Below, one piece after another: positions 9,784 to 28,780 of a stretch of DNA of 30,206 bases. The stretch spans positions 1 through 30,206 of the forward strand of contig JAWXCN010000275.1 of NCBI GenBank assembly GCA_034408725.1. The letters run 5' to 3'. Numbering within the stretch: position 1 is the first letter of the stretch; every line of letters starts with the position of its first letter. This DNA is from Candidatus Hydrogenedentota bacterium (GTDB taxonomy: Bacteria; Hydrogenedentota; Hydrogenedentia; Hydrogenedentales; SLHB01). The notes beneath the pieces are model-generated. The model had not been told where the DNA came from and searched no databases. It saw nothing but the letters and a program-made list of their open reading frames with translations. A program made the translations under genes and the position numbers.

Positions 9784-10596
9784 CTAGAGTTCGCTGACGG
9801 CTTTGACGAAACACCCTTTGAAATCATTGATCCTGAGTAACTCGTCGCGCACTTGTGTCGCGGTTTCCTTAGTCTTGTACGAGCCGATGCATGCCTTGAC
9901 AACTCCGTCGTCCTTTGCGGGATATAACCGCACGGCGTAATCGCTCTTGGATTCGATCGAGTTCTTGAAGCGCTCGGCGTTTGCCTGGGTGTCAAACGAT
10001 CCCACCTGCACAGTGAATGGGCCGGAAACTTCGGGCTGGGCTGGCGACGCCGTTGGCGGTAACTGTGTTTTTATGTCTTCAACCGGTGAAACTGGCATCC
10101 CCGTATCAGACGTGGCCGCAGGCATAGGCTCTGCGGGAGTTTCTGTGGCCGTCACCGGAACAGGCGCTTTCTCGACGTCCGCTTCTTCTTTTCGCCGGGG
10201 AGGAGGGGCAGGAACAATCTGCGAGTTCGGCTCGCGCTGACTGACCTGCCGGGAAGCGGGCGCTGAAGCGCCTGTAGGTTCTCCTGGCATTATGACCGGA
10301 GCGGGGGAGATTTGTACGCCCTCGGTCACGACCGGCTGCTGGGACGTATCCCGGGATTGGCGGGACGCCTCTCGCTTGGCGGTTTTTTCAGCGCCGGGCA
10401 ATCGCTCAACCTGCGCGCCGTCCTCTGCGGGCTTGTCTTTCGCGCCTGGTTGATACCGGCCGATGAGAATTCCGATACCGATGCAAATAACCGCCGTGAA
10501 CAATAGGGCCACGACAGAGGAGAGCACTTGCTCGCCATTGGCTTTGCCGTCATTGTTTCCCGCGCGGGGCAGTCTCGGTTTATTGCTGTTCGCCAT
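9784..10596 (-). CDS. SPOR-domain protein (FtsN/DedD-like): N-terminal TM anchor, Pro/Ala-rich linker, C-terminal SPOR
   Basis: TM segment VLSSVVALLFTAVICIGIGILIG; low-complexity linker; FTVQVGSF...NAERF...IGSYKTKETA. Confidence 0.85.
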   Translation of the reverse strand: MANSNKPRLPRAGNNDGKANGEQVLSSVVALLFTAVICIGIGILIGRYQPGAKDKPAEDGAQVERLPGAEKTAKREASRQSRDTSQQPVVTEGVQISPAPVIMPGEPTGASAPASRQVSQREPNSQIVPAPPPRRKEEADVEKAPVPVTATETPAEPMPAATSDTGMPVSPVEDIKTQLPPTASPAQPEVSGPFTVQVGSFDTQANAERFKNSIESKSDYAVRLYPAKDDGVVKACIGSYKTKETATQVRDELLRINDFKGCFVKAVSEL

Positions 10597-11134
10597 GAGT
10601 CGTTTCCCCCGCGTCACCTTCGGACTGCTGTTGCACGGCCTCGAGCGCGTTTAATTCTTCCATCAATTTTACCCGGCCCGCTTCCAACTCTGCATAGGAC
10701 AGATGCGGGTCACGCGCTTCGGCCAAACGGTTGCCGATGCGGTCCATGAAGAGTGCGACGCGCGTTTCGCCATCCGCTCCTTCGGATTCCTTCATAAACC
10801 GAAACACTTTCTGACGGCGAAGGAGCTGCGCGGCAAGAAACGCTTTCGCGATTTCAATTCTGTCGTCCGATTCGGCGGCTTCATAAAAGAGCTGCCGTAG
10901 CGGCGACGATTTTTCCGGGGGCTGTTGCTGCGCGACGCTCGGATCGGTGTATTGCGTTTCCCAGACAGCAATGGAGCCGGAGGCCTGTGAATTTTCCCAG
11001 GTTGGTTTTGCGAAATCATGTCGCACCAATTGCTGTTGTTCTACGCGCATGACGGACACGACGGTTTCGCCGTGTTCGAATTGTTTTTCACTCGAGGCAC
11101 AATTACGCCCGGGTTTTCCGATACGAATTTCCAT
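10580..11134 (-). CDS. Conserved hypothetical protein (184 aa)
   Basis: Fills the gap in a co-directional minus-strand cluster; N-terminal CxxSxxxF..GE..RxDF..W and LAAQLLRRQK resemble, from recall, an uncharacterised family seen in PVC-type bacteria. Confidence 0.75.
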   Translation of the reverse strand: MEIRIGKPGRNCASSEKQFEHGETVVSVMRVEQQQLVRHDFAKPTWENSQASGSIAVWETQYTDPSVAQQQPPEKSSPLRQLFYEAAESDDRIEIAKAFLAAQLLRRQKVFRFMKESEGADGETRVALFMDRIGNRLAEARDPHLSYAELEAGRVKLMEELNALEAVQQQSEGDAGETTHGEQQ

Positions 11135-11147
11135 TAAGCCTTAATTC

Positions 11148-14100
11148 TCATTTCCCGGTTTGCGGTGGTTTCTTGGCTCCCACTATCCCACCACCAATTT
11201 TAAGCAGATCGAACAGGATTTTTCTAGGTGCATCAATTACCTGGAGCGCCTCGCGCGCCGTTTCGAGTGCGCCGCTGACAAGCGTCACGCGCACAGGAGG
11301 TGTCTCGGAGACCGTGCCGACGGGCTTAAACGTGGGCCCCGTGACGTTAAACGCCAGGTCAATATCCTGCTGCGCCAGCCGGTGGCCTTGCACGTTGAAA
11401 TTGTCTCGCATGAGCGGAATATTTTCCGCGGCATCTGGCGAGACGGCGACCTTGATGTTGTAATCCATGTCGCCATCAATAACGAACTCGCCGTTCGCGT
11501 TAAGGCGCATGGCGTCGGATTCGAGGATAATCGAGGGTGTGCGCACGATGTCGCCTTCAAACTCGACGGTCGATTCCAGGTGCGAAAATTTTAGTGATGG
11601 AGGCAATGCAGACACGTCCCCTTCAAGCTGGCGTTCGAATAACGCCATGAGATAGTCCGCGCTGAATTGTCCATTCGATGTATCAAACCGGCCTGATCCG
11701 GTCAAACTGCGTGGATCATCGCGATCCTGCTCGTATCGCACGTCGCCATTCAGATTACCAGTAAAAATCATCGGTTGCCGCAGGTGTTCCATGAAATAGG
11801 ACGAGGGAACATTCGTCCATTTTGCCGTCGTGACATAGGAGTTGTCGGCACGATTGCTGAGGTATGTCCCCTCAATATTTCCTTCATCGACTTTCGCGGT
11901 ATATTTTTCAATACCACTTTCGGCCCCGGTCTGAAACGCATTTCCTTTGAAGTCGCGGCCTTTCCATGGCGGTACTTCCAGGGCGTCGGCTTGCAAGATA
12001 TAGTTGTACGTGCGGTCTGACGGCGGATATTTTTTCAGGTCCCGCACCAGGGGCGCGAACCATTTGTCTCCCCGCAAAGGCGGGGTCTGCGCCTGTTTGG
12101 CGTGCAGGGTTATGGTCGAAACGGGTTTTTCTCCTTCGATCATTTCACCTGTCATCGCAAGGTCTTTGCAAACAATGGCGTTGTTCGCGCCCTCGGCGCG
12201 CGCGGAGATTTCGTCGACGGCCAATGCGAATTTCGCGGTCCATTCAACACCGGATTTTCCATCTACGCGCGTCCAATCATATTTACCGCTGTGCGCGGAG
12301 CCTCCGGAAATAACGTAGGGGAGAGGCAGGCATTTTCCGACCGATACAACGTCCAAGTGGTCTGATGTGGCGTTCAAGGTCCGGAGCTGCCATTTTTTCC
12401 CAGAGTGCCGCAAGTTGGCGGTTGCCAGTAATTTGGTGCCGGCGACGACGCCGTCGACTTCAAAGGTGGCTGATTTTTTTGGGGTGAACTCGCCTTTGAC
12501 GCGGGCGGCTGCGCCAATTCCGGCTGGCTTGAGGAAATACCAACGGTAACCGATTTCGGTTTGCGATGCGTCTACATCGCCTTCAAAACTGATTTTTCCG
12601 TTGTCGATTTTTCCCGTCGCGCGGACGCCCGTGGACCCCGAAAGCGCCGTGTTTCGAATCGACTGGGTAACTTTTATGTTTCCAATATCGGCAATCACGC
12701 CGGACGCGGAGACCTCTCCTTTTTTCGTTTCAACGTCGTACCAGCCGTTCGCAGCCAGGGTTTCATCATTCACCACTGCCGTTAGCGAGGCGACATTGAT
12801 GCGCTTGCCTTCAAGAAGGACAGTGCCCGCAATTCGGGTCGCTTCCAAATCCAAATCAGTTTTGCTCAGCGAGCCATCGAGAATATTGACGGTGCCCGTG
12901 GCGGTCTTGTCCTTCGAGTTCCAAGTGGTGTCGAGGCGGCCCAGTCGCACCGTGCCACCGGGAAAACGCTTATCCTTGGGTTTGAACGACACCTCAGCGC
13001 CCGATGTGGATGCGCGGACGTCAAACGCGGGGCTTTCCGCGGTGCCGGTAAGTTGGATTGCCACGTTTGCGTCCGGGTTTAGCGTGTAGTCTAACGTGCC
13101 GTACTGTTCTGCCCGATCCTGCAGGGCGAAATTGATGATGTCGTCGAGCGGCAATTGCGCGGAAGTCAGTTTGAGATCGAACGCGGGAGAGGGCGCGGAA
13201 AAGTCAATGGAACCCGTCACTACCCCTTGCAAGGTATCTGTCATGGCCTGCGCCATGCTGACTCGTATGATGCGTTCCGCGGGATCGTACGAAGCCTGCG
13301 CGACCACGTTTCCGGTCATGGGTTCGAGGAATTCGGGTTGGTCCCTCGCCAATAGGCCGTTGACAGGCGTTTCGAGTGACAGTGCAATGGTCCCGTCTTC
13401 TTTGCCCGCAATGCGCACACTTGGGCGAGCGGAGCCTTGAAGAATGAATCGGCGTGATGCCGGCAAAAAGGCATTTACGTCGTCTGCGGTCATGTATTGG
13501 ATATCCGCCCTGGCCTCAAAATCATTCAGGGAAATATAGCGGGCATTGGCCTTCACACGTTTTTCCGGGTCGCCGCCGTAGAGCGCTTCGAATGTTCCAG
13601 AGAGCGCGGGGGAATCGGTGAGTTTTGCGACGTCGAAGGAAACGTCAGTCAGGCTGACCGCGGTCTGCGCGGTGATGTCCTCGACGGTTAGCTTGCAGTC
13701 CGACCCCAGAATGCGGAAAGAAAATGGTGGGAGGGAGGCTGTCAATCCGTCCAGCGTTGGCAAGTTCGGGCTGGCCGTTACGTCCTTTGGATGACGGCGG
13801 ACTAAAAGCTCCGCGCCTTCCACCTGGATGCGGTCAACCAGCACCTGTCCGTATAACAACTCCGTGAGGTCTACATATATATAGGCCAACGGAAGTTTCA
13901 GATGGATTTCGGAACCGCCTTTTAGTTGGCGGGAAAGCTCCAGGCCTTCCGCGCGGAGACCACGAAGCCCGAACGCAGACAGCGAGTCGAACTGAATATC
14001 CGTCCCCGTGCGAGACTGGGCGGACTCAAGCAAGCGCCCACGAAGCCCTTCGAGTTTGTACTTTGCGAACAACGCTCCGCCGGTAATGGCGCCAGACAAC

Positions 14101-14216
14101 AAGAGCAACGCCACCAACCAGAACTGGGCGGACCTGCTTGACCGGACCCAGGTATCATGGATGTCACTCTGATTACTTATTGGGTGTGCCTGTCGTTTCC
14201 GGTGTCGTGGGTTCAT
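11148..14216 (-). CDS. Large AsmA/TamB-like envelope protein
   Basis: About 1020 aa; basic N-terminus then one TM segment, long amphipathic beta-rich body, C-terminal LTGSGRF...FEGDIV...VTGPTFKP typical of AsmA_2; start uncertain (ATG 14216 overlaps recA 3' end). Confidence 0.75.
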
Positions 14217-15240
14217 CGGCAGGGACAGTGCCCAACCAATCAAGCCCTTTGTTCTTCAGGACGGTTGCGCGGAGCTTGTCGCAAACTTCGGGATTATCCT
14301 TGAGATATTGACGCGTGTTTTCGCGCCCCTGTCCAAGGTTTTCACCGTTCATGGAAAACCACGCGCCACTCTTTAGAATGATTTTTTCTTCAACGGCCAG
14401 ATCGAGAATATCGCCTTCACGGGAAATGCCTTCATTAAAGAGGATATCAAATTCGGCTTGCCGGAAAGGCGGACCCAGCTTGTTCTTGACGACCTTGGCA
14501 CGGACACGGTTGCCAACGTCCTGTTCGCGTTCCTTAATCGTGGCGATGCGCCGGACATCAATCCGTATGCTTGCATAGAATTTGAGCGCGCGTCCGCCCG
14601 TAGTCGTTTCCGGGCTTCCAAACATCACGCCAATTTTGTCGCGAATCTGGTTGATGAAAATCACCAGTGTGCGGGAACGGCTAATGGACGCCGTCAGTTT
14701 GCGCAGCGCCTGGGACATCAGGCGCGCCTGCAAGCCCATGTGCGAATCGCCCATGTCGCCTTCAACTTCCGCTTTGGGCACCAGAGCGGCAACGGAGTCA
14801 ATGACGATGACTTCCACAGCGTTGCTGCGCACAAGGGTTTCGCAGATTTCCAGCGCTTGTTCCGCGGTGTCCGGCTGGGAGACCAGCAGGTTGTCAATAT
14901 CGACGCCAATCTTCGAGGCGAAAACCGGGTCGAGCGCGTGTTCAGCGTCGATGAAACAGGCGAGCCCACCTTGGCGCTGGGCAGTCGCGACCACGTGAAG
15001 CGCCAACGTCGTTTTTCCGGAGGACTCCGGTCCGAAAATCTCGACGACCCTGCCTGAGGGCAACCCGCCGACACCGGTTGCAATGTCTAGAGAGAGACTT
15101 CCCGTTGAGATGGCCCGGACCCGGCGTTCGAAGTGGTCATCTCCCAAACGTAGCAAGGTTCCCCGGCCAAACTGCTTTTCGAGTTGCGCGACTGCGATAT
15201 CGAGTGCTTTTACTTTTGCGTCGTCTTTTGCTGCGGCCAT
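14173..15240 (-). CDS. recA: Recombinase RecA
   Basis: GPESSGKTT Walker [43 protein letters not shown]; no intein visible; GGAG RBS. Confidence 0.99.
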
Positions 15241-20976: not shown

Positions 20977-22833
20977 CTACGCGGGGTCGTAGGGGTTCAA
21001 TTTCGATGGTTTGGAAGGCTCAGTCGCCCGGAAGTCATACCACGTGTCCCCTGCTTTGACGATGAGATTGCCATCAAGCCGGGAGAAGACGCGGGCCAAT
21101 TCGGGATGCTCGTACTGGAGGATTATCGCTTCGTCACTGTCTTGTTGAATCGGCGTCAACGATTCCTTGCGGTAATCGTCCCGAATCCATGTACCCTCGA
21201 AAAACCGGTAGAGATGGCCAGCAATCGGCTGTGGCATGTGGCGCGTGTATTCGAGCTGGGCTTCATCCCGTTCGATGTACCGCAGTTCCGTAACGGCAAG
21301 TGGAAGGCCCGCCTCTTGCTTGTACTCGATCATGGTAGCGGTGGCAAAGTTCCAGAATTCGTTGCTCATCCATCGCCCTTGTTCGAGGGCGACCACGGCT
21401 TCATCGTAACGGTCTTGGGTCCGTAGCTCGGCGGCTTCGATACGCAATAGGCGAGAGGTGACATAGGTGTCTTCGTCGCTGCCGGTGGCGCCCGGAACAA
21501 CGAGTGTTTTCCAGTGCGCTTTCGCTTGTGTGGACAACTCGGTTTCGCGCGCGCGGGCCTCAGCGGCCTTTGCCTGCCAAGGTGCGGGGTCCTCTCCGCG
21601 CTGCTGGAGTTGTTCGGCCATTTCTTCGGCTTTTTCGGCTGACAATCCGGCGAGCATTGTGTCACGGTCCAGAATTTCGCCTTTCATCAGTTCGATGAAT
21701 CGGGGCGCGACGGCGTTTTCCGGTTGCCACTTCAGATAATCTTCCCAGCCCGCTTTCGATTCTTCGTACTGCTCGTTCAGACCCTGGATGCGATACAATT
21801 GGCGGCGAACCCAGCGATCGTGATCGAGCCGCGTGGCCTGTTCGAGATACTTGATTGCATTGACATGGTCGATGAGTTTTTCTTCGTAAATCGAATAGCC
21901 GAGATCAAAATACAGCCTGTAGTTTCGCGGATTCTTGCGAATTCCGTCTTTAAGAAAGTCCACGCCAAAGAAGTAATAATTTTCTCTTTCGCCTACCCAG
22001 TATTCATGAACGGGATCATACTCCCGTAACTCCCACGGGGTATCTTCCAGTGGCGCAGTCGCGTTGTAGGCCATGTGCCAGGAGCCAAGGAGAAAGGCGT
22101 CGATGAAAGTCGGATCGAGCGTAACGCAACTCTTCATCAGCGGGAGCATGCGCTGCATTTCTCCCTTGTGCCAAAACCGGTCAACCTCGAGCCACAGCAT
22201 GTTCGCGGCCATTTTCCGAAACCCGAAAAACATGTTCGCAAGACTGATATTGGTGCCACGTACCTGGTAAAGTCCGGCAATTCCCATTTGCGTGCCGAAT
22301 CCAGCTACCCGCCCCGCACGATGAGCGATGACAAGTTCCTTTCTTAGGTCGATCGTATCTTCGCTTTGTGCAAACGCCCAAAGGGCGCCATCGCGTTGGC
22401 GTTGTTCTTCAGTGTAAATTTCTTGCTGACCCGATCCAAGTCCTTCCTCATCAACCTCTTCACCATCCTCATCCAGCGCCAATGCGGACTCATCCGCATC
22501 TGTTATCGGCGCGGCAGTATACCGCACTATGCGCGGATATGGCTTACCTGTATTATCATAGTCATTTTCTCCGACATCCACGTCAGGAAGGACGCGGTCA
22601 GAAATTTCGACGAGCTTTGCGAAGAGTTCATCGTCCACGTAATTGGTGGGGTCTTCGCCGGGTGGGGGTTGCCCGGGATTTCCGAAGACACGCATCTGGG
22701 TGGACGCACTTTGGACCCAGCGGTAGAGGCGGTCACTTTCCTGCAACCGCTCGACGCGCCGGCCCTGCACGGAGCCAAGCGCCAAGGCAAGTACAACGAG
22801 TATGCCGAGGACGAGATTGGGAAACTGCTTCAC
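20977..22833 (-). CDS. Membrane-anchored TPR-like protein associated with ABC transporter (PilG/XapA-like core)
   Basis: N-terminal hydrophobic anchor; GFRKMAANMLWL...TLDPTFIDAFLLGSWHMAYN...FLKDGIRKNP...LYFDLG helical-repeat core; GTG start 5 nt after permease stop. Confidence 0.75.
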   Translation of the reverse strand: MKQFPNLVLGILVVLALALGSVQGRRVERLQESDRLYRWVQSASTQMRVFGNPGQPPPGEDPTNYVDDELFAKLVEISDRVLPDVDVGENDYDNTGKPYPRIVRYTAAPITDADESALALDEDGEEVDEEGLGSGQQEIYTEEQRQRDGALWAFAQSEDTIDLRKELVIAHRAGRVAGFGTQMGIAGLYQVRGTNISLANMFFGFRKMAANMLWLEVDRFWHKGEMQRMLPLMKSCVTLDPTFIDAFLLGSWHMAYNATAPLEDTPWELREYDPVHEYWVGERENYYFFGVDFLKDGIRKNPRNYRLYFDLGYSIYEEKLIDHVNAIKYLEQATRLDHDRWVRRQLYRIQGLNEQYEESKAGWEDYLKWQPENAVAPRFIELMKGEILDRDTMLAGLSAEKAEEMAEQLQQRGEDPAPWQAKAAEARARETELSTQAKAHWKTLVVPGATGSDEDTYVTSRLLRIEAAELRTQDRYDEAVVALEQGRWMSNEFWNFATATMIEYKQEAGLPLAVTELRYIERDEAQLEYTRHMPQPIAGHLYRFFEGTWIRDDYRKESLTPIQQDSDEAIILQYEHPELARVFSRLDGNLIVKAGDTWYDFRATEPSKPSKLNPYDPA

Positions 22834-22838
22834 GGCGA

Positions 22839-23660
22839 CTACAACTCCTTACGCCGGAAAATCCAATAAGACATCAAATACCCGGCGATCCCGTATGTCA
22901 GGGCATAGATCACCAATTCCGGGATCATGGCGTCGCGCGGCGCGTCATTTACCTGTAAGTAGAGAATTTGGTCTTTAAGATTGAAGTATTGCAGATTAGG
23001 AAGCACCTGCCACAGGCCGTATGCGGCCCTGCCAATTAGCCAATCCAGCGTATTTTCGGTTTGCCCGGCGCGATCGCTAACATCTTTCAGATATTCCGTC
23101 AGATTGCCGAGCACGTAGATAAACAGTCCGCCGATGGCCGGCAAAATAGAGGAAGTGGACGTACACGAGATTGCGAACGTGAACGCGGACACGATCAAAA
23201 ACTGGAAGTAAGTTAGAAGAATTGACCAGAGCAATAGGGTCGGCATGACCCTTTCCTTCAGATAGAGCGCGAAGAAGAACAAGCCGCCCATCAGTGCGAG
23301 GTTGATGATAATGATGAACTGTACTCCGAGGAACTTTCCGAGCAGGTACTGATACCTGCGGACCGGTTTCGAGAGCACGGTGTAGACGACTTTATTTTCC
23401 ACTTCCGGCGGCACGACGGATGCCGAAACGAAGATGGTAATCAGCATTCCGAAAATGGCAATTGCCGTCACGCAAATGTCTTTAATTAACTTGATGTCGA
23501 GTTCCGATTGGCCGGTCGTTTCGCTGGTCGTCGTCAGGAACGCGGTCATGAATTGGGAACCGAAAATGACCATGATGCTCAGGATCAGAATCCCGATGAG
23601 GATTTTCTTGCGGATACCTTCGCGAAAGGTGTATACCGCGATACTCCACACGCCGCCCAT
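22839..23660 (-). CDS. ABC-2 type transporter permease (PilI/NosY-like)
   Basis: IAVYTFREGIRKK, EVENKVVYTVLSKPVRRYQYLLGKFLG, about six TM segments, LPNL, C-terminal FRRKEL. Confidence 0.9.
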   Translation of the reverse strand: MGGVWSIAVYTFREGIRKKILIGILILSIMVIFGSQFMTAFLTTTSETTGQSELDIKLIKDICVTAIAIFGMLITIFVSASVVPPEVENKVVYTVLSKPVRRYQYLLGKFLGVQFIIIINLALMGGLFFFALYLKERVMPTLLLWSILLTYFQFLIVSAFTFAISCTSTSSILPAIGGLFIYVLGNLTEYLKDVSDRAGQTENTLDWLIGRAAYGLWQVLPNLQYFNLKDQILYLQVNDAPRDAMIPELVIYALTYGIAGYLMSYWIFRRKEL

Positions 23661-23662
23661 GA

Positions 23663-24613
23663 CTACTGCTTCCCTTCTTTCTTTGCCTTTGCATCGCCGA
23701 CGACGCGAACGAAGAGTTCTTCGAGGGTTTCCCGGCGCGGCGCGACGCTGACGACGGTGAGGTTGTGGGATTTTGCGATGTCGAGTGCGTCGTAGAGCGT
23801 TAAAGTTTGGGGGACGCGCAGGCGGGCCTTGCTGTCAATTTTGTCTTCCACGCCAAGGCCTTTGTCGGTGATTGCCTTGATCGAAGCGTCTGAAATGCCG
23901 CTCACATCGATGGACATATCACGGTCGGTTAATAGTTCGTTGATCGTGCCCATCGTTTGCAGCACACCCTCGAACAAAATGCCTACGCGATCGCTGATCA
24001 GTTCCACTTCGAGTAATTCATGGCTGGAAACTAGAAGTGATTTGCCCTGCGCGCGTAATTGCACCAGTAGATCGCGCATTTCTTTCCGGGCCACCGGATC
24101 GAGACCGGTCGTAGGTTCATCCAGAATGAGCACGGTCGGGTCACTGAGCAAAGCCTGCGCCAAACCGATGCGCTGGCGCATGCCTTTCGAGTAACCGCGA
24201 AGCAGGCGTTTACGCGCCCTCGTCATGCCAACGGTTTCGAGCGTTTCACTAATGCGGCGCTCGAGGTCTTTGCCGCGTAACCCGTAGAGTTGGCCATAGA
24301 ACCGGAGGATTTCCTCGCCTTTGAGAAAGTCGGGGTAATATGCCCCTTCGGGGAGATAACCTATTTTGCGTTTGATGCCGGGGGACGCGATGTCCTCGCT
24401 GCCCATGATTTTCATGGTTCCCGAAGTGGGGAAAATCAGTCCAAGGAGCATTTTGATTGTGGTGGTCTTGCCGGAACCGTTCGGCCCGAGGTATCCGAAG
24501 ATTTCGCGTTCCTGAACGGCGATGGTGAGGTCCTGAAGGGCGTGGACATCTTGCCCTTTGACGGCTCCCTCGTAGACTTTTGAAAGTTTGTTCGTCTCGA
24601 TAACTGCGGACAC
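23663..24613 (-). CDS. ABC transporter ATP-binding protein (PilH-like)
   Basis: GPNGSGKTT, YSKGMRQRIGLAQAL, LILDEPTTGLDP, SSH, TLEELF; GTG start with GAGG RBS. Confidence 0.95.
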   Translation of the reverse strand: MSAVIETNKLSKVYEGAVKGQDVHALQDLTIAVQEREIFGYLGPNGSGKTTTIKMLLGLIFPTSGTMKIMGSEDIASPGIKRKIGYLPEGAYYPDFLKGEEILRFYGQLYGLRGKDLERRISETLETVGMTRARKRLLRGYSKGMRQRIGLAQALLSDPTVLILDEPTTGLDPVARKEMRDLLVQLRAQGKSLLVSSHELLEVELISDRVGILFEGVLQTMGTINELLTDRDMSIDVSGISDASIKAITDKGLGVEDKIDSKARLRVPQTLTLYDALDIAKSHNLTVVSVAPRRETLEELFVRVVGDAKAKKEGKQ

Positions 24614-24859: not shown

Positions 24860-26164
24860 GTGGCCCAGCTTGTTCTCGAATTTCTCGTCATCTTTGTCTT
24901 GATATTGTTCAATGGCGTATTTGCGATGTCCGAGTTGGCCATTGTGTCGGCACGAAAAGCCATCCTGCAAAAGCGCGCGAATTCCGGGGACGGCGGCGCG
25001 AAGGTCGCCCTCAAACTTGCTGAAGACCCCGGGGATTTTCTGGCTACGGTACAAGTGGGCATTACTTTTATCGGGGTCATCGCTGGCGCGTTAGGGGGTG
25101 CAACATTTTCCGAAGAGATCGCCAAACTCATGGAGGTTGTCCCTGGAATCGGTGATCACGCCGAGAATGCCGCGTTGTTTATCGTGGTGGCGTGCATCAC
25201 CTATCTGAGTCTGATCGTGGGTGAACTCGTGCCCAAGCGCATTGCCCTTCAACGTCCAGAGACGATTGCCTGTCTTGTATCGAGACCGGTCCGCGCGATT
25301 TCCATTGGCGCCAAGCCCTTTGTGCGCCTGATTGGATACAGCACAGACGCTTTGTTGTGGGTCCTGCGCATCCCGAAACACAAAGAACACGCGGTAACGG
25401 AAGAGGAAATCCGCTTTCTAATTGATCAAGGCGCCCGTACCGGCGTGATTAATACGCTCGAGCGTGAAATGGTAGAAAGCGTATTACGCCTCGACGACCG
25501 GCGCATCACTGCGGTGATGACGCCGCGTACCGCCCTGGCGTGGATTGACGTCGAAGCGGACAGGAGCAGTCTCCGGGAAACCATATCGAGCACGACCGAC
25601 ATTGACATTATCGTTTGTAATAGGTCGGTCGATCAGATCGCGGGGCTGGTGCGCATTCATGATCTGACGGCGCGCCTACTCGAAGGAGGGCCGATAAACT
25701 TGCGGGATATGCTTCGCGCGCCCAGCTATCTTCCGACAACAATGACGGCGCTTCAGGCGTTGCGCAAGGTGCGGGAGTCGAGCGAATCTACCGCGTTGGT
25801 TGTCGACGAGTTCGGTGGAGTCGAGGGCGCCGTATCCGCGGCAGACCTCATGGAAGCTGTTTTGGGAGATGTCTCGCTGGTCGAGGGAACCGGCGCCGAG
25901 GCGGTCGCGCGCGCCGACGGTTCGTGGTTGGTAGACGGCGCTTTGGTGCTGGATCGGTTGAAGGAATCGCTCCAGATTCCCGAAATGCCGGGAGAAAAAT
26001 CGGGTGATTTCGATACGGTCGCGGGGTACGCGCTCCTGCACTTTGGCCACATACCGGTCGCGGGCGATTCGTTCAAGGTTGCGGGTTGGCGTTTTGAAGT
26101 TGCGGACATGGACGACCGGCGCATCGACAAACTGATTATTTCGCGGGATGAGCCGGATTCGTAA
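24860..26164 (+). CDS. CNNM/HlyC-CorC family membrane protein (DUF21 + 2 CBS + CorC_HlyC), putative Mg/Co transport
   Basis: NGVFAMSELAIVSAR, FLATVQVGIT, GELVPKRIAL, VMTPR, VVDEFGGVEG, FDTVAGY, DRRIDK; AAGGAG RBS with GTG start. Confidence 0.94.
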   Translation: MAQLVLEFLVIFVLILFNGVFAMSELAIVSARKAILQKRANSGDGGAKVALKLAEDPGDFLATVQVGITFIGVIAGALGGATFSEEIAKLMEVVPGIGDHAENAALFIVVACITYLSLIVGELVPKRIALQRPETIACLVSRPVRAISIGAKPFVRLIGYSTDALLWVLRIPKHKEHAVTEEEIRFLIDQGARTGVINTLEREMVESVLRLDDRRITAVMTPRTALAWIDVEADRSSLRETISSTTDIDIIVCNRSVDQIAGLVRIHDLTARLLEGGPINLRDMLRAPSYLPTTMTALQALRKVRESSESTALVVDEFGGVEGAVSAADLMEAVLGDVSLVEGTGAEAVARADGSWLVDGALVLDRLKESLQIPEMPGEKSGDFDTVAGYALLHFGHIPVAGDSFKVAGWRFEVADMDDRRIDKLIISRDEPDS

Positions 26165-26347: not shown

Positions 26348-26384
26348 CCGGCACATTGTTTAACGCGGCGAGGAGATGGGCTTG

Positions 26385-27962
26385 ATGCTGCAACCTGTGT
26401 TTCAGAATCCGTGGGTGCGCGCCGTCGGAGCGTTGCTGGCCATCGCGGCCGTCATCATGTTGGCGTATATCCTTCGGCCGGTGCTGGTGCCCCTTTTTCT
26501 GGCGCTCACAGTGGCATACGTGTTGGACCCCGTTGTGGACTTCTTCGAGGCCAAACGAATTCCACGAATGCTGACCATACTTTGTTTGGGGGTCATCGCG
26601 AGCATCATCGCGCTTAGCATTCCGCTGGTGATCATACCTTCGGTCTATCAGCAGGCAACGGGCCTGATCGCGTCTGGCAAAGGGATGCCGCAATTCTCGT
26701 CGATCGATGTCAGCCGCGACGGGTTTCTATCGCGTGGAGAGCTGGCGATTACCGGCATCGCTATCGATGAGGCCGCGTTTTCTGCCAATGACGCGGACGC
26801 GGATAATGTTTTAAGCGCGGAAGAGGCCGCCCCGTTGTTAGGCCGGGATGGAGGACGTGGCGAGGCCTTGCTCGATTGGTTGTTGGACCGGCTCCCAGTG
26901 AACGCCATGGTGCGGATGTTGAATCTTGATAAAGCGAGAGACGCTGGCGCGCCCGCCGTACTTGCGCAACCGGAACAACCCATTGAAAGCGCCGCTCCGG
27001 CCGAAGAAGCGGCTGAGCCAAGTGCGCCTTCTGAAGCGACCGCGCCGGCTATGCCTGGCGAAGTGGAGACCGAATCGGAAACGGAACCGGAAGCCGCGCC
27101 GGAGATCGCTGCAACGCCAGTTCCAGAGGACGACATTGATGCGCGCGCGTTGTTGGCCGAATACATCGGAACCAACGTGCGCGATTTCGCGGTACAGTTT
27201 GCCAAGACACATGCTGGCAGTCTTGCATCGTTTGGACAACAGGCCGGCATGAACGTGTTCGGTTTTATCCGGTCGCTCGGACAGGCACTGCTGAACGTTG
27301 TATTGTTTCTGGCGAACTTCGCGTTGTTCGCAGTCGTGGCGGGCTATTTGCTCAAGGGTTTCGATCCACTGAAAGCGAATGCGAGGAAGCTCATTCCCCC
27401 CCGCTATGCGCCGAAAACGCTGGCCATCCTTGGGGACATTGACGATCAACTCCGGAGCTTTCTGCGCGGGCAAATGACCGTGTGCATGTGCCTCTCGTTG
27501 TTTTACACCATCGGGTTCTTGATTTTTGGCGTGCCTTTCGCAATACCGATTGGCGCATTCGCGCTGGTAGTCAGTTTCATTCCATTCGTCGGTGTTTTTG
27601 TGATTGCGGTTATCGCGATTCTATTGACGCTGCTTCAATATGGCATCGACTATCACATATTCGGGGTCATATTCTGGGTTATTTTGGCGCAGTTCCTCGA
27701 AGGGAATTTTCTGACACCGAAAATCGTGGGAGACAAGGTTGGCTTAAACCCGGTCTGGGTCATTTTGGCCATCATGGTCTTCGGCAACTTTTTGGGATTT
27801 TTGGGGCTGCTGTTGGCCGTGCCCATCGCGGCAGCGCTGAAAGTGCTAGTCGTGGAAGGAGTCGCGTACTACAAGGCGTCGCCGCTTTTTGAAGGTGTCG
27901 AACCCGAGGACGATTCCGAGCCGCCCGCCGATGCCGCGCCACGCCGCAAAAAGCGCCGGTAA
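26385..27962 (+). CDS. AI-2E (PerM/TqsA) family transporter with inserted EF-hand pair and acidic linker
   Basis: PLFLALTVAYVLDPVVD, FLRGQ, FIPFVG, QFLEGNFLTPKIVGDKVGLNP, GFLGLLLAVP; GAGGAG ends at 26375 so ATG 26385 (or TTG 26382) fits RBS spacing better than 26376. Confidence 0.92.
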   Translation: MLQPVFQNPWVRAVGALLAIAAVIMLAYILRPVLVPLFLALTVAYVLDPVVDFFEAKRIPRMLTILCLGVIASIIALSIPLVIIPSVYQQATGLIASGKGMPQFSSIDVSRDGFLSRGELAITGIAIDEAAFSANDADADNVLSAEEAAPLLGRDGGRGEALLDWLLDRLPVNAMVRMLNLDKARDAGAPAVLAQPEQPIESAAPAEEAAEPSAPSEATAPAMPGEVETESETEPEAAPEIAATPVPEDDIDARALLAEYIGTNVRDFAVQFAKTHAGSLASFGQQAGMNVFGFIRSLGQALLNVVLFLANFALFAVVAGYLLKGFDPLKANARKLIPPRYAPKTLAILGDIDDQLRSFLRGQMTVCMCLSLFYTIGFLIFGVPFAIPIGAFALVVSFIPFVGVFVIAVIAILLTLLQYGIDYHIFGVIFWVILAQFLEGNFLTPKIVGDKVGLNPVWVILAIMVFGNFLGFLGLLLAVPIAAALKVLVVEGVAYYKASPLFEGVEPEDDSEPPADAAPRRKKRR

Positions 27963-28780
27963 GCGGTGTCGCCTACACCGAAGAGCGCGTAAGATGCGGC
28001 GATGGGAAACAGTACGAGTGCGGGGTCGCGCCGTTGGGCGAGGTCGAACACGGCGATTGCCACAGCGCATACCACGAGGAACCGGAACCCAAGCCGGGGC
28101 GCAAGCAATAGACTTTTCATCTTGTTCTTCGGATATTCCACCGAGCTGACCATCAATATGGCGAGCGCGAACGTCGGCGGACCAAAGACCCAGAAGCTGG
28201 CTTTGAACCCGGTCGAGATGGTGAACAGCGCGAACGACGCGACGGTCGCGGCGGCGGCTGGGCTTGGCAATCCAATAAAGTATTCGCGCATCTCTGATTG
28301 AAAGACGTTGAAGCGCGCCAGACGCAACGCTGCGCAGATCGCGTAGATGATGGCGATAAACGCACCCGCGCGAACGACGTAGTTTTGCTCGCCGGGCAGG
28401 AACATCGTGTAGACCAGTACGGCGGGCGCAACGCCAAATGACACGACATCGCAGAGGCTATCGAGTTGTTTGCCGAACTCAGAGACGCTCTTTGTCATGC
28501 GCGCGACCGCGCCGTCAAGCGTATCCACTACCATTGCCGCGAGAATCAAATAGGCGGCCTTCTGGAAGTGTCCTGCCTGCGCGGCGGCATTTGCCGTTGA
28601 CATGCTTCCCTCAATCGCCGCAAATACACTCGCCAAACCGCAATAAAGATTAAGCGTCGTAATTCCGCTCGCGAGCACGTTGATCGGCCGCCGGCTGTTC
28701 ATGATTTGGCGCCGGCGCACATTGGCCATTTTCAGGCCTCGCCCGAGATTCGGGCGTTTTAGTGGTCGTTTGTCGGGCAT
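27869..28780 (-). CDS. pssA: CDP-diacylglycerol--serine O-phosphatidyltransferase
   Basis: CDP-alcohol phosphotransferase motif DTLDGAVARMTKSVSEFGKQLDSLCD, RLARFN, FIGLPSP; downstream of psd; start could be a later ATG. Confidence 0.93.
   Translation of the reverse strand: MPDKRPLKRPNLGRGLKMANVRRRQIMNSRRPINVLASGITTLNLYCGLASVFAAIEGSMSTANAAAQAGHFQKAAYLILAAMVVDTLDGAVARMTKSVSEFGKQLDSLCDVVSFGVAPAVLVYTMFLPGEQNYVVRAGAFIAIIYAICAALRLARFNVFQSEMREYFIGLPSPAAAATVASFALFTISTGFKASFWVFGPPTFALAILMVSSVEYPKNKMKSLLLAPRLGFRFLVVCAVAIAVFDLAQRRDPALVLFPIAASYALFGVGDTAYRRFLRRGAASAGGSESSSGSTPSKSGDAL

Follow-up and report, generated by a model that had tools for sequence, protein, structure and literature searches.

An EF-hand pair inserted into an AI-2E family transporter of Candidatus Hydrogenedentota

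In a stretch of 30,206 nucleotides from a Candidatus Hydrogenedentota genome, hereafter called the window, we found an AI-2E (PerM/TqsA-fold) transporter gene (26385..27962, + strand) whose product carries an inserted pair of EF-hands. An earlier note on this DNA had proposed such a protein from the letters alone, and its presence was confirmed by PF01594, by a structure model and by conservation in orthologues. Computation shows the fold, where the pair is inserted, that its ligands are conserved, that its carriers form one clade and that it matches a secreted module. We regard the protein as a real, selected domain architecture of narrow range that is apparently undescribed: the earlier note knew of no AI-2E member with EF-hands, and we found none in the literature searched (mostly open papers; Rettner and Saier 2010 might list such fusions), nor did the same literature yield any paper on EF-hand proteins of Hydrogenedentes.

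Gene, fold and insertion site

The open reading frame spans 26376-27962 on the + strand, and residue numbers given here count from its ATG at 26376 (528 aa from there). The ATG at 26385 is the likely start codon as judged from the sequence, since it lies 9 nt after GAGGAG, which is a usable ribosome-binding spacing. It gives a protein of 525 aa, the approximate length proposed earlier, and the database entry P0002, likewise 525 aa, matches this start. The window protein matched PF01594 (AI-2E) with E 1.7e-50 and 172.5 bits versus a gathering cut-off of 34.3. A structure model built from a 119-sequence alignment (pLDDT 81, pTM 0.73) aligned to TqsA (7nb6) with Z 20.4 over 324 residues at an rmsd of 6.9, and Foldseek also matched it to the TqsA fold (E 7.5e-6); the H1-H4 scaffold, TMH5/6 and the two hairpins characteristic of this fold are all present in the model. 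A first model from 12 sequences (pLDDT 49.8) was confident in the EF lobe alone and was discarded together with a wide fold search based on it, which returned generic helix matches only. The window protein has Gly328 at a site occupied by Asp in 117 of 118 homologues. Matched by eye, this site (27357-27359) appears to be the motif A acid needed by UPF0118, and with Gly for Asp the window copy may be impaired or altered in function. The assembly record L124 has identical DNA over the gene (0/1587 differences) and is perhaps not an independent sample.

With regard to the layout of the protein, the N-terminal scaffold (H1, H2 and the membrane part of H3; 26385..26678, residues 4-101) comprises model helices 12-32, 34-59 and 64-101. 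It is followed on the + strand by the EF-hand pair lobe (26694..26840, residues 107-155, predicted to be periplasmic), a conserved amphipathic helix of the AI-2E arm (26865..26927, residues 164-184), an acidic Pro/Ala/Glu linker (26931..27137, residues 186-254) and H4 with the transport domain (TMH5, HP1, TMH6 and HP2; 27141..27893, residues 256-506). The linker is disordered in the model (pLDDT about 45), variable, and composed of 18 Ala, 14 Glu and 12 Pro among its 69 residues. An acidic linker had been noted earlier as continuing directly from the EF-hands, and it is indeed present; however, helix 164-184 divides it from the EF pair, which makes two inserts rather than one, and the linker measures about 70 aa rather than about 60 aa, in a segment that varies from 5 to 97 aa family-wide and from 16 to 97 aa inside the EF clade. 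The 21-residue helix between the two inserts is found in EF-less homologues too, and maps to approximately TqsA 108-126, the end of H3 and the start of H4.

The family profile aligned gap-free to TqsA 1-126 and placed the EF insertion at about TqsA 99-107, a part of H3 that the available text of PMC9475539 describes as hydrophilic and periplasmic. The membrane orientation of the lobe was carried over from TqsA. Moreover, the arm has 13 K/R versus 35 D/E, as compared with 8 versus 4 in loop 326-366, and this charge bias together with the secreted origin of the module (see below) argues for a lobe on the outside. According to the part of the PhoA fusion work on UPF0118 available to us, the N terminus is inside as in TqsA, whereas the C terminus is outside, unlike that of TqsA. 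By analogy with TqsA, the lobe would be located at the periplasmic tip of the H3-H4 arm.

The two 12-residue loops were found where they had first been seen, loop 1 at 26706..26741 (residues 111-122) and loop 2 at 26790..26825 (residues 139-150), the latter starting 28 residues after the former, and the Phe at -4 of each loop was confirmed as F107 and F135. Both loops have oxygen ligands at positions 1, 3, 5 and 12 and a hydrophobic residue at position 8, as in canonical EF loops of 12 residues, and loop 2 of the window protein has Asn6 and Ala13. Scans of the kind suggested in the earlier note gave a divided outcome. The window protein by itself fell below the Pfam cut-off (PF13202, 17.7 bits versus 25.9), which was passed by 5 of the 7 EF-clade orthologues scanned, and the PROSITE pattern PS00018 matched loop 1 but failed at position 13 of loop 2. 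When the genome was read in six frames, 18 of 45,855 ORFs, together 6.0 million aa, matched the pattern; because of this rarity, and because 11 orthologues carry a pair with the same spacing, the EF pair cannot reasonably be put down to chance. The expected helix-loop-helix fold was borne out by the model, in which pLDDT is 86-95 across residues 111-150, strands 117-119 and 145-147 form a short two-stranded sheet, and the helices of the lobe are short, at 4-8 residues. Calmodulin-type lobes match residues 103-156 with Z 6.1-7.2 and rmsd 2.1-3.0 over 51-59 residues; the Z values are modest, yet they agree with the sequence motifs. Structure matches of the lobe in the ESM Atlas were EF-hand clusters (TM 0.47-0.59), while the search of the Atlas by features gave no usable match for the insert, and P0012 led to plain AI-2E clusters only. 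A predicted lobe homodimer with four Ca2+ scored 0.01, which gives no answer either way. As judged by motifs and model, the EF loops very probably bind Ca2+.

Conservation, distribution and origin of the EF-hand pair

To describe conservation we used 12 EF-bearing sequences and compared 18 EF consensus positions, named beforehand, with the 27 other lobe positions. Pairwise identity was 66% at the consensus positions versus 29% at the others (permutation p 3e-5), and 81% in the core. D1, G6 and E12 of loop 1 as well as D1 and E12 of loop 2 are invariant (12/12); D, N or S occupies positions 3 and 5 of loop 1 in 12/12, position 3 of loop 2 in 11/12 and position 5 in 12/12, i.e. 47 of 48 cases. 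Across four genomes, pN was 0.08-0.23 for 15 hand-picked ligand and structural codons, 0.10-0.19 for the core and 0.46-0.70 for the other lobe codons. Synonymous sites are saturated among these four genomes, which precludes dN/dS and also means that the conservation of the lobe is not a matter of recent shared ancestry. Despite this depth, no member of the EF clade was found without the lobe or the D1/E12 ligands. From these comparisons of sequence, selection on the lobe acts to preserve metal binding, and a conserved partner surface is hardly in evidence. The EF clade is set apart by eleven diagnostic core positions, namely N267, F271 and nine similar ones; F271 is present in 12/12 EF-clade sequences and 0/107 others. 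In the periplasmic H4 helix, N267 and F271 point to the same side, where they could provide a docking face. It should be underlined, though, that the stem branch of the EF clade, at 0.089 changes per site, is long enough for many diagnostic changes anyway, and helix 164-184 has no EF-specific change.

The homologue search gave 578 matches, 120 of them listed and one of these the window's own protein; the named matches belong to Candidatus Hydrogenedentes/Hydrogenedentota. Among the matches listed (120 of 578), the EF pair occurs in 11 of the 119 other homologues, and the lobe is without counterpart in the sister proteins P0013 and P0015. The transporter gene was found in 99/135 phylum genomes at E 1e-20 or better. 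We examined 96 of these 99 (G005, G025 and G043 were left out), and as 4 had no insert region, 92 were informative. The EF pair is present in 4 of the 92, all in the genus of the window, and in 0/88 others. Within this one Candidatus Hydrogenedentota genus it is carried by 4/5 genomes (G000, G095, G096 and G098), and the fifth, G097, has the gene at the same locus without the lobe. A tree of 44 chosen rows, 7 of them EF-bearing, was built from core columns with inserts excluded, and grouped the EF proteins in one clade (100/97) with EF-less G097 and P0015 as sisters; a FastTree run with all 12 EF proteins gave the same clade (0.99). The EF-less sister lineage has a 15-residue loop in place of the lobe and is evidently viable.

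Outside this clade, a scan of 263 proteins for the EF module added one transporter, P0139, in which one EF loop at the same site (residues 111-142) is intact and the second has decayed. P0139, a single sequence, belongs to a distant clade, and its grouping with the EF clade was rejected by the AU test (p-AU 0.007), so that, as far as the tree can tell, this site acquired an EF loop on at least two occasions. Relatives of the P0139 insert region were sought among 8000 scored candidates, where only P0139 itself was found. A profile search of 1.84 billion representatives was followed for the best 150 of 31,914 matches, in which the AI-2E proteins of other phyla are thinly sampled. The five loci from a metagenome scan were one identical to the window, two fragments, one EF-less homologue and one EF-only match.

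The lobe profile also detected two more proteins of the same genome, each with five tandem EF pairs and apparently secreted, G000:C273 (L110 5869-6990, - strand) and G000:C183 (L111 4375-5958, - strand); their signal-peptide-like leaders were judged by eye. One of them has relatives in 99/135 phylum genomes, and some of these relatives are encoded by open frames of more than 1000 aa. In 13 such proteins, 60 of 60 EF pairs have the 28-residue spacing of the transporter lobe, and this secreted EF-pair module of the phylum is the probable source of the lobe. The lobe of P0011 scored on average 82 against the secreted modules versus 49 against the other transporter lobes and may be a fresh replacement; when 45 candidates were searched with its EF region, P0011 itself and P0122, a protein of tandem EF pairs, were the only matches. 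A separate origin of the P0011 lobe was considered, but the AU test is compatible with a single origin (p-AU 0.52).

Inserts of at least 40 aa occur at this site in 11 of 108 EF-less homologues, ten of them acidic and of low complexity and one (P0022 in G082) with four CxxC motifs; the site is permissive and takes up unrelated inserts. The insert of P0022 (L036 8483-8830) comprises about 85 residues, is zinc-ribbon-like and has a weak HypA match (E 1.6e-4). No convincing second copy of it was found in 135 genomes; a candidate in G119 (E 3.8e-4) was dismissed because it covers 22 residues at the query end only. A DxDxDG-type motif also occurs at this site in G119 (L063), and G079 (L030) has a weak EF-like loop after the conserved helix; either may be due to chance.

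The chromosomal surroundings of the gene are conserved on one side. A pssA-like CDP-alcohol phosphatidyltransferase gene (27869..28780, - strand, assigned by Pfam) is convergent with the transporter gene, and pssA followed by psd and radC forms a conserved block across the phylum. Where 1 kb or more of downstream DNA is available (85 loci), pssA is the convergent next gene in 76; in 4 loci pssA has gone and radC is the neighbour. CozE is a member of the AI-2E family. A speculation on scramblase activity of CozE is found in the accessible part of PMC11237490; a lipid-handling role, considered from this and from the pssA adjacency, is unsupported here, the genes being convergent and pssA gone in 4 loci. 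Upstream, the variable neighbour in the window is a co-directional CNNM/CorC-family gene (24860..26164, + strand, assigned by Pfam). A promoter and terminator scan of the window stayed at background level. Elsewhere in the window, genes for an ABC ATPase, an ABC-2 permease and a 618-aa TPR-like protein (20977-24613, - strand) lie upstream of yggS-pheS-pheT as a block that many genomes of the phylum conserve. The 1031-aa protein encoded directly downstream of recA (11148-14243, - strand) matches AsmA/YhdP weakly and may be a bridge-like lipid transfer protein. A 184-aa ORF at 10580-11134 (- strand) has a weak Cas1 match (E 0.0085, below cut-off) that is probably spurious.

Proposed role of the lobe

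The reading we prefer, to which we give about an even chance of being right, is that of a structural lobe, normally loaded with Ca2+, on a housekeeping transporter. The ancestor of one within-genus clade would have taken up one copy of the secreted EF-pair module of the phylum, and the module would have entered where the periplasmic H3-H4 arm of a chromosomal transporter with a conserved locus tolerates a break, close to the tip of the arm. If the protein forms a homopentamer, as analogy with TqsA, YdiK and Aq_740 suggests, five lobes would surround the periplasmic basin. Each lobe would bind two Ca2+ at micromolar affinity and usually be occupied, since Ca2+ in the periplasm follows or surpasses that of the medium and the affinity of EfhP, a periplasmic protein that exposes a hydrophobic surface on binding Ca2+, is given as 13.7 uM in the available text of PMC9132961. 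Bound Ca2+ would fold the lobe, join its two ends and keep the arm continuous and protease-resistant, so that selection would act on the ligands and leave the remainder of the lobe to drift. Transport itself, probably elevator-type export of a small molecule or lipid handling, would proceed without need of the lobe, and Ca2+, as a structural cofactor, would affect activity only under real Ca2+ starvation. Some points run counter to this structural reading: the ligands are as constrained as the core, which is expected of a regulatory role too; the diagnostic core positions, N267 and F271 among them, could be a docking surface; and the EF loops, gained at least twice at this site, may have been favoured there.

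A true extracytoplasmic Ca2+ sensor that gates transport would agree with the repeated gain of EF loops at one site, and it would fit the available text of PMC9475539, where the H3-H4 loop of TqsA is a main protomer contact at the basin rim and where H4 lies between scaffold and transport domain. N267 and F271, being specific to the EF clade, and the precedents EfhP (PMC9132961) and APC1 (PMC5369052), as far as the accessible parts of these papers go, favour such a sensor as well. Against it stand the non-ligand lobe residues, only 29% identical and with no evident partner surface, the short lobe helices, the lack of EF-specific change in helix 164-184, and the fact that 88 of the 92 informative genomes have the gene without the lobe. 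Gating is thus weakened by the periplasmic position of the lobe, its drifting non-ligand residues, EF-less relatives at the same locus and unrelated inserts, and we consider a sensor rather doubtful. The same measure of doubt applies to its extended form, in which an AI-2E transporter would be gated by outside Ca2+ via five EF lobes at the basin rim and the arm tip would be an allosteric socket repeatedly filled with metal-binding modules, namely with an EF pair at least twice, possibly three times, and with a zinc-ribbon-like domain once. That the lobe is instead an idle, near-neutral passenger, its ligands kept only since an unfolded insert is harmful, seems improbable to us: the acidic low-complexity inserts, the four-CxxC insert and the half-decayed EF pair of P0139 at the same site agree with it, as do the loops of the window protein, which are the least canonical of the clade, and its departure from the family consensus at 10 sites versus 3-6 for the ten clade-mates listed, but lobe and D1/E12 were never lost in the clade, even though a 15-residue loop is viable in the sister lineage.

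The earlier note had also seen in the upstream CNNM gene a hint of a divalent-cation module, which would make the transporter a carrier of divalent cations whose lobe captures them in partnership with the CNNM protein. In G000 the CNNM gene is co-directional and about 220 bp upstream with no terminator-like site between the two genes (window), and it is adjacent in G098. This accounts for 2 of the 4 EF-bearing genomes; in the other two, G095 and G096, the upstream slot is taken by a fatty-acid-hydroxylase gene and CNNM lies on other contigs. Of the 66 other loci with 1.8 kb or more of upstream DNA, a number that includes these two genomes, none has CNNM there. As the acidic residues needed for UPF0118 cation antiport are missing too, the module did not hold up and cation transport of this kind is very improbable. 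Zinc-ribbon-like domains are more typical of the cytoplasm, and the occurrence of one at the same site in P0022, together with the disagreement of published topologies on the C terminus, could speak for a cytoplasmic arm whose lobe reads cytosolic Ca2+ as a classical sensor. Both topology papers, however, put the N terminus inside, and charge bias and secreted origin point outside, which leaves very little probability for a cytoplasmic lobe.

AI-2E proteins are near-universal (13 of 14 control genomes had them), yet little is established about their substrates and driving force, and transport by TqsA could not be demonstrated in vitro according to the accessible part of Khera et al. The flexible arm was partly unresolved in YdiK; a natural metal-binding insert in this arm provides an on/off handle as well as a rigid marker for structural studies, and the arm tip a place for engineering sensor domains in. 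Should transport prove to be gated by Ca2+, the protein would be a rare example among bacteria of a secondary transporter that its own extracytoplasmic EF-hands regulate, and a bacterial counterpart to the Ca2+-regulated mitochondrial carriers. Otherwise, it still shows plainly how a housekeeping membrane protein has repeatedly captured domains from secreted repeat proteins.

Comparison with known transporters and EF-hand proteins

TqsA and YdiK (TC 2.A.86, PF01594; PDB 7nb6 and 7ot9) have the same core fold as the window protein (Z 20.4 and 10.5), and TqsA shares with it a conserved Arg (R64 = R61) and the Pro at the HP1 tip (P403 = P237). Compared with TqsA, the window protein has in addition an EF lobe of about 55 residues and the 70-residue linker in the periplasmic arm. 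The residues docked to AI-2 in TqsA differ (K200 to Q, N238 to F and E280 to T), and luxS was found in 0/54 genomes with this transporter, as compared with 5/14 controls in the same search; a TqsA-like function in AI-2 export is not supported on these grounds. The AI-2E fusions named in the available text of PMC9475539 have C-terminal ATP/GTP-binding, GAF or TPR-like domains, and none of those named there is an EF-hand.

The best NCBIfam match was CxpE (NF045801, E 2.9e-39), the chloramphenicol efflux permease ABUW_0982 of Acinetobacter baumannii, which one review (PMC8003822) links to efflux. With 135 bits versus a cut-off of 675 the window protein is no orthologue, and nothing here points to a role in drug efflux. 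The UPF0118 Na+(Li+)/H+ antiporters also have the AI-2E fold in common with the window protein. When their signature E179-R182-K215-Q217-D251-R292-R293-E296-K298-S307 was compared with motifs matched by eye, the basic residue and Gln of motif B were found to be kept (R364 and Q366), whereas the signature residues of motifs A, C and D are missing: E179 corresponds to G328 (D in orthologues), D251 to S400, R292/R293 to G443/N444 and E296 to T447. Membership of this antiporter group was rejected.

With regard to the EF-hands, the secreted tandem EF-pair proteins (G000:C273, G000:C183 and P0122) have the same 28-residue spacing and consensus, but they are soluble arrays of 3-11 pairs, whereas the transporter has a single pair inside a membrane protein. 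EfhP of Pseudomonas aeruginosa and lanmodulin are likewise bacterial extracytoplasmic EF-hand proteins, but stand-alone ones, and the lanmodulin hallmarks Pro2 and Asp9 of the loop, as given in the available text of PMC10949232, were each found in 0 of 24 loops of the 12 EF-bearing sequences. [quoted passage not shown] According to PMC5369052, a locking-pin helix gates APC1 from the side of the intermembrane space. SLC25A24 differs from the window protein in its unrelated carrier fold, in having four EF-hands as an N-terminal domain, and in that its gating has been demonstrated.
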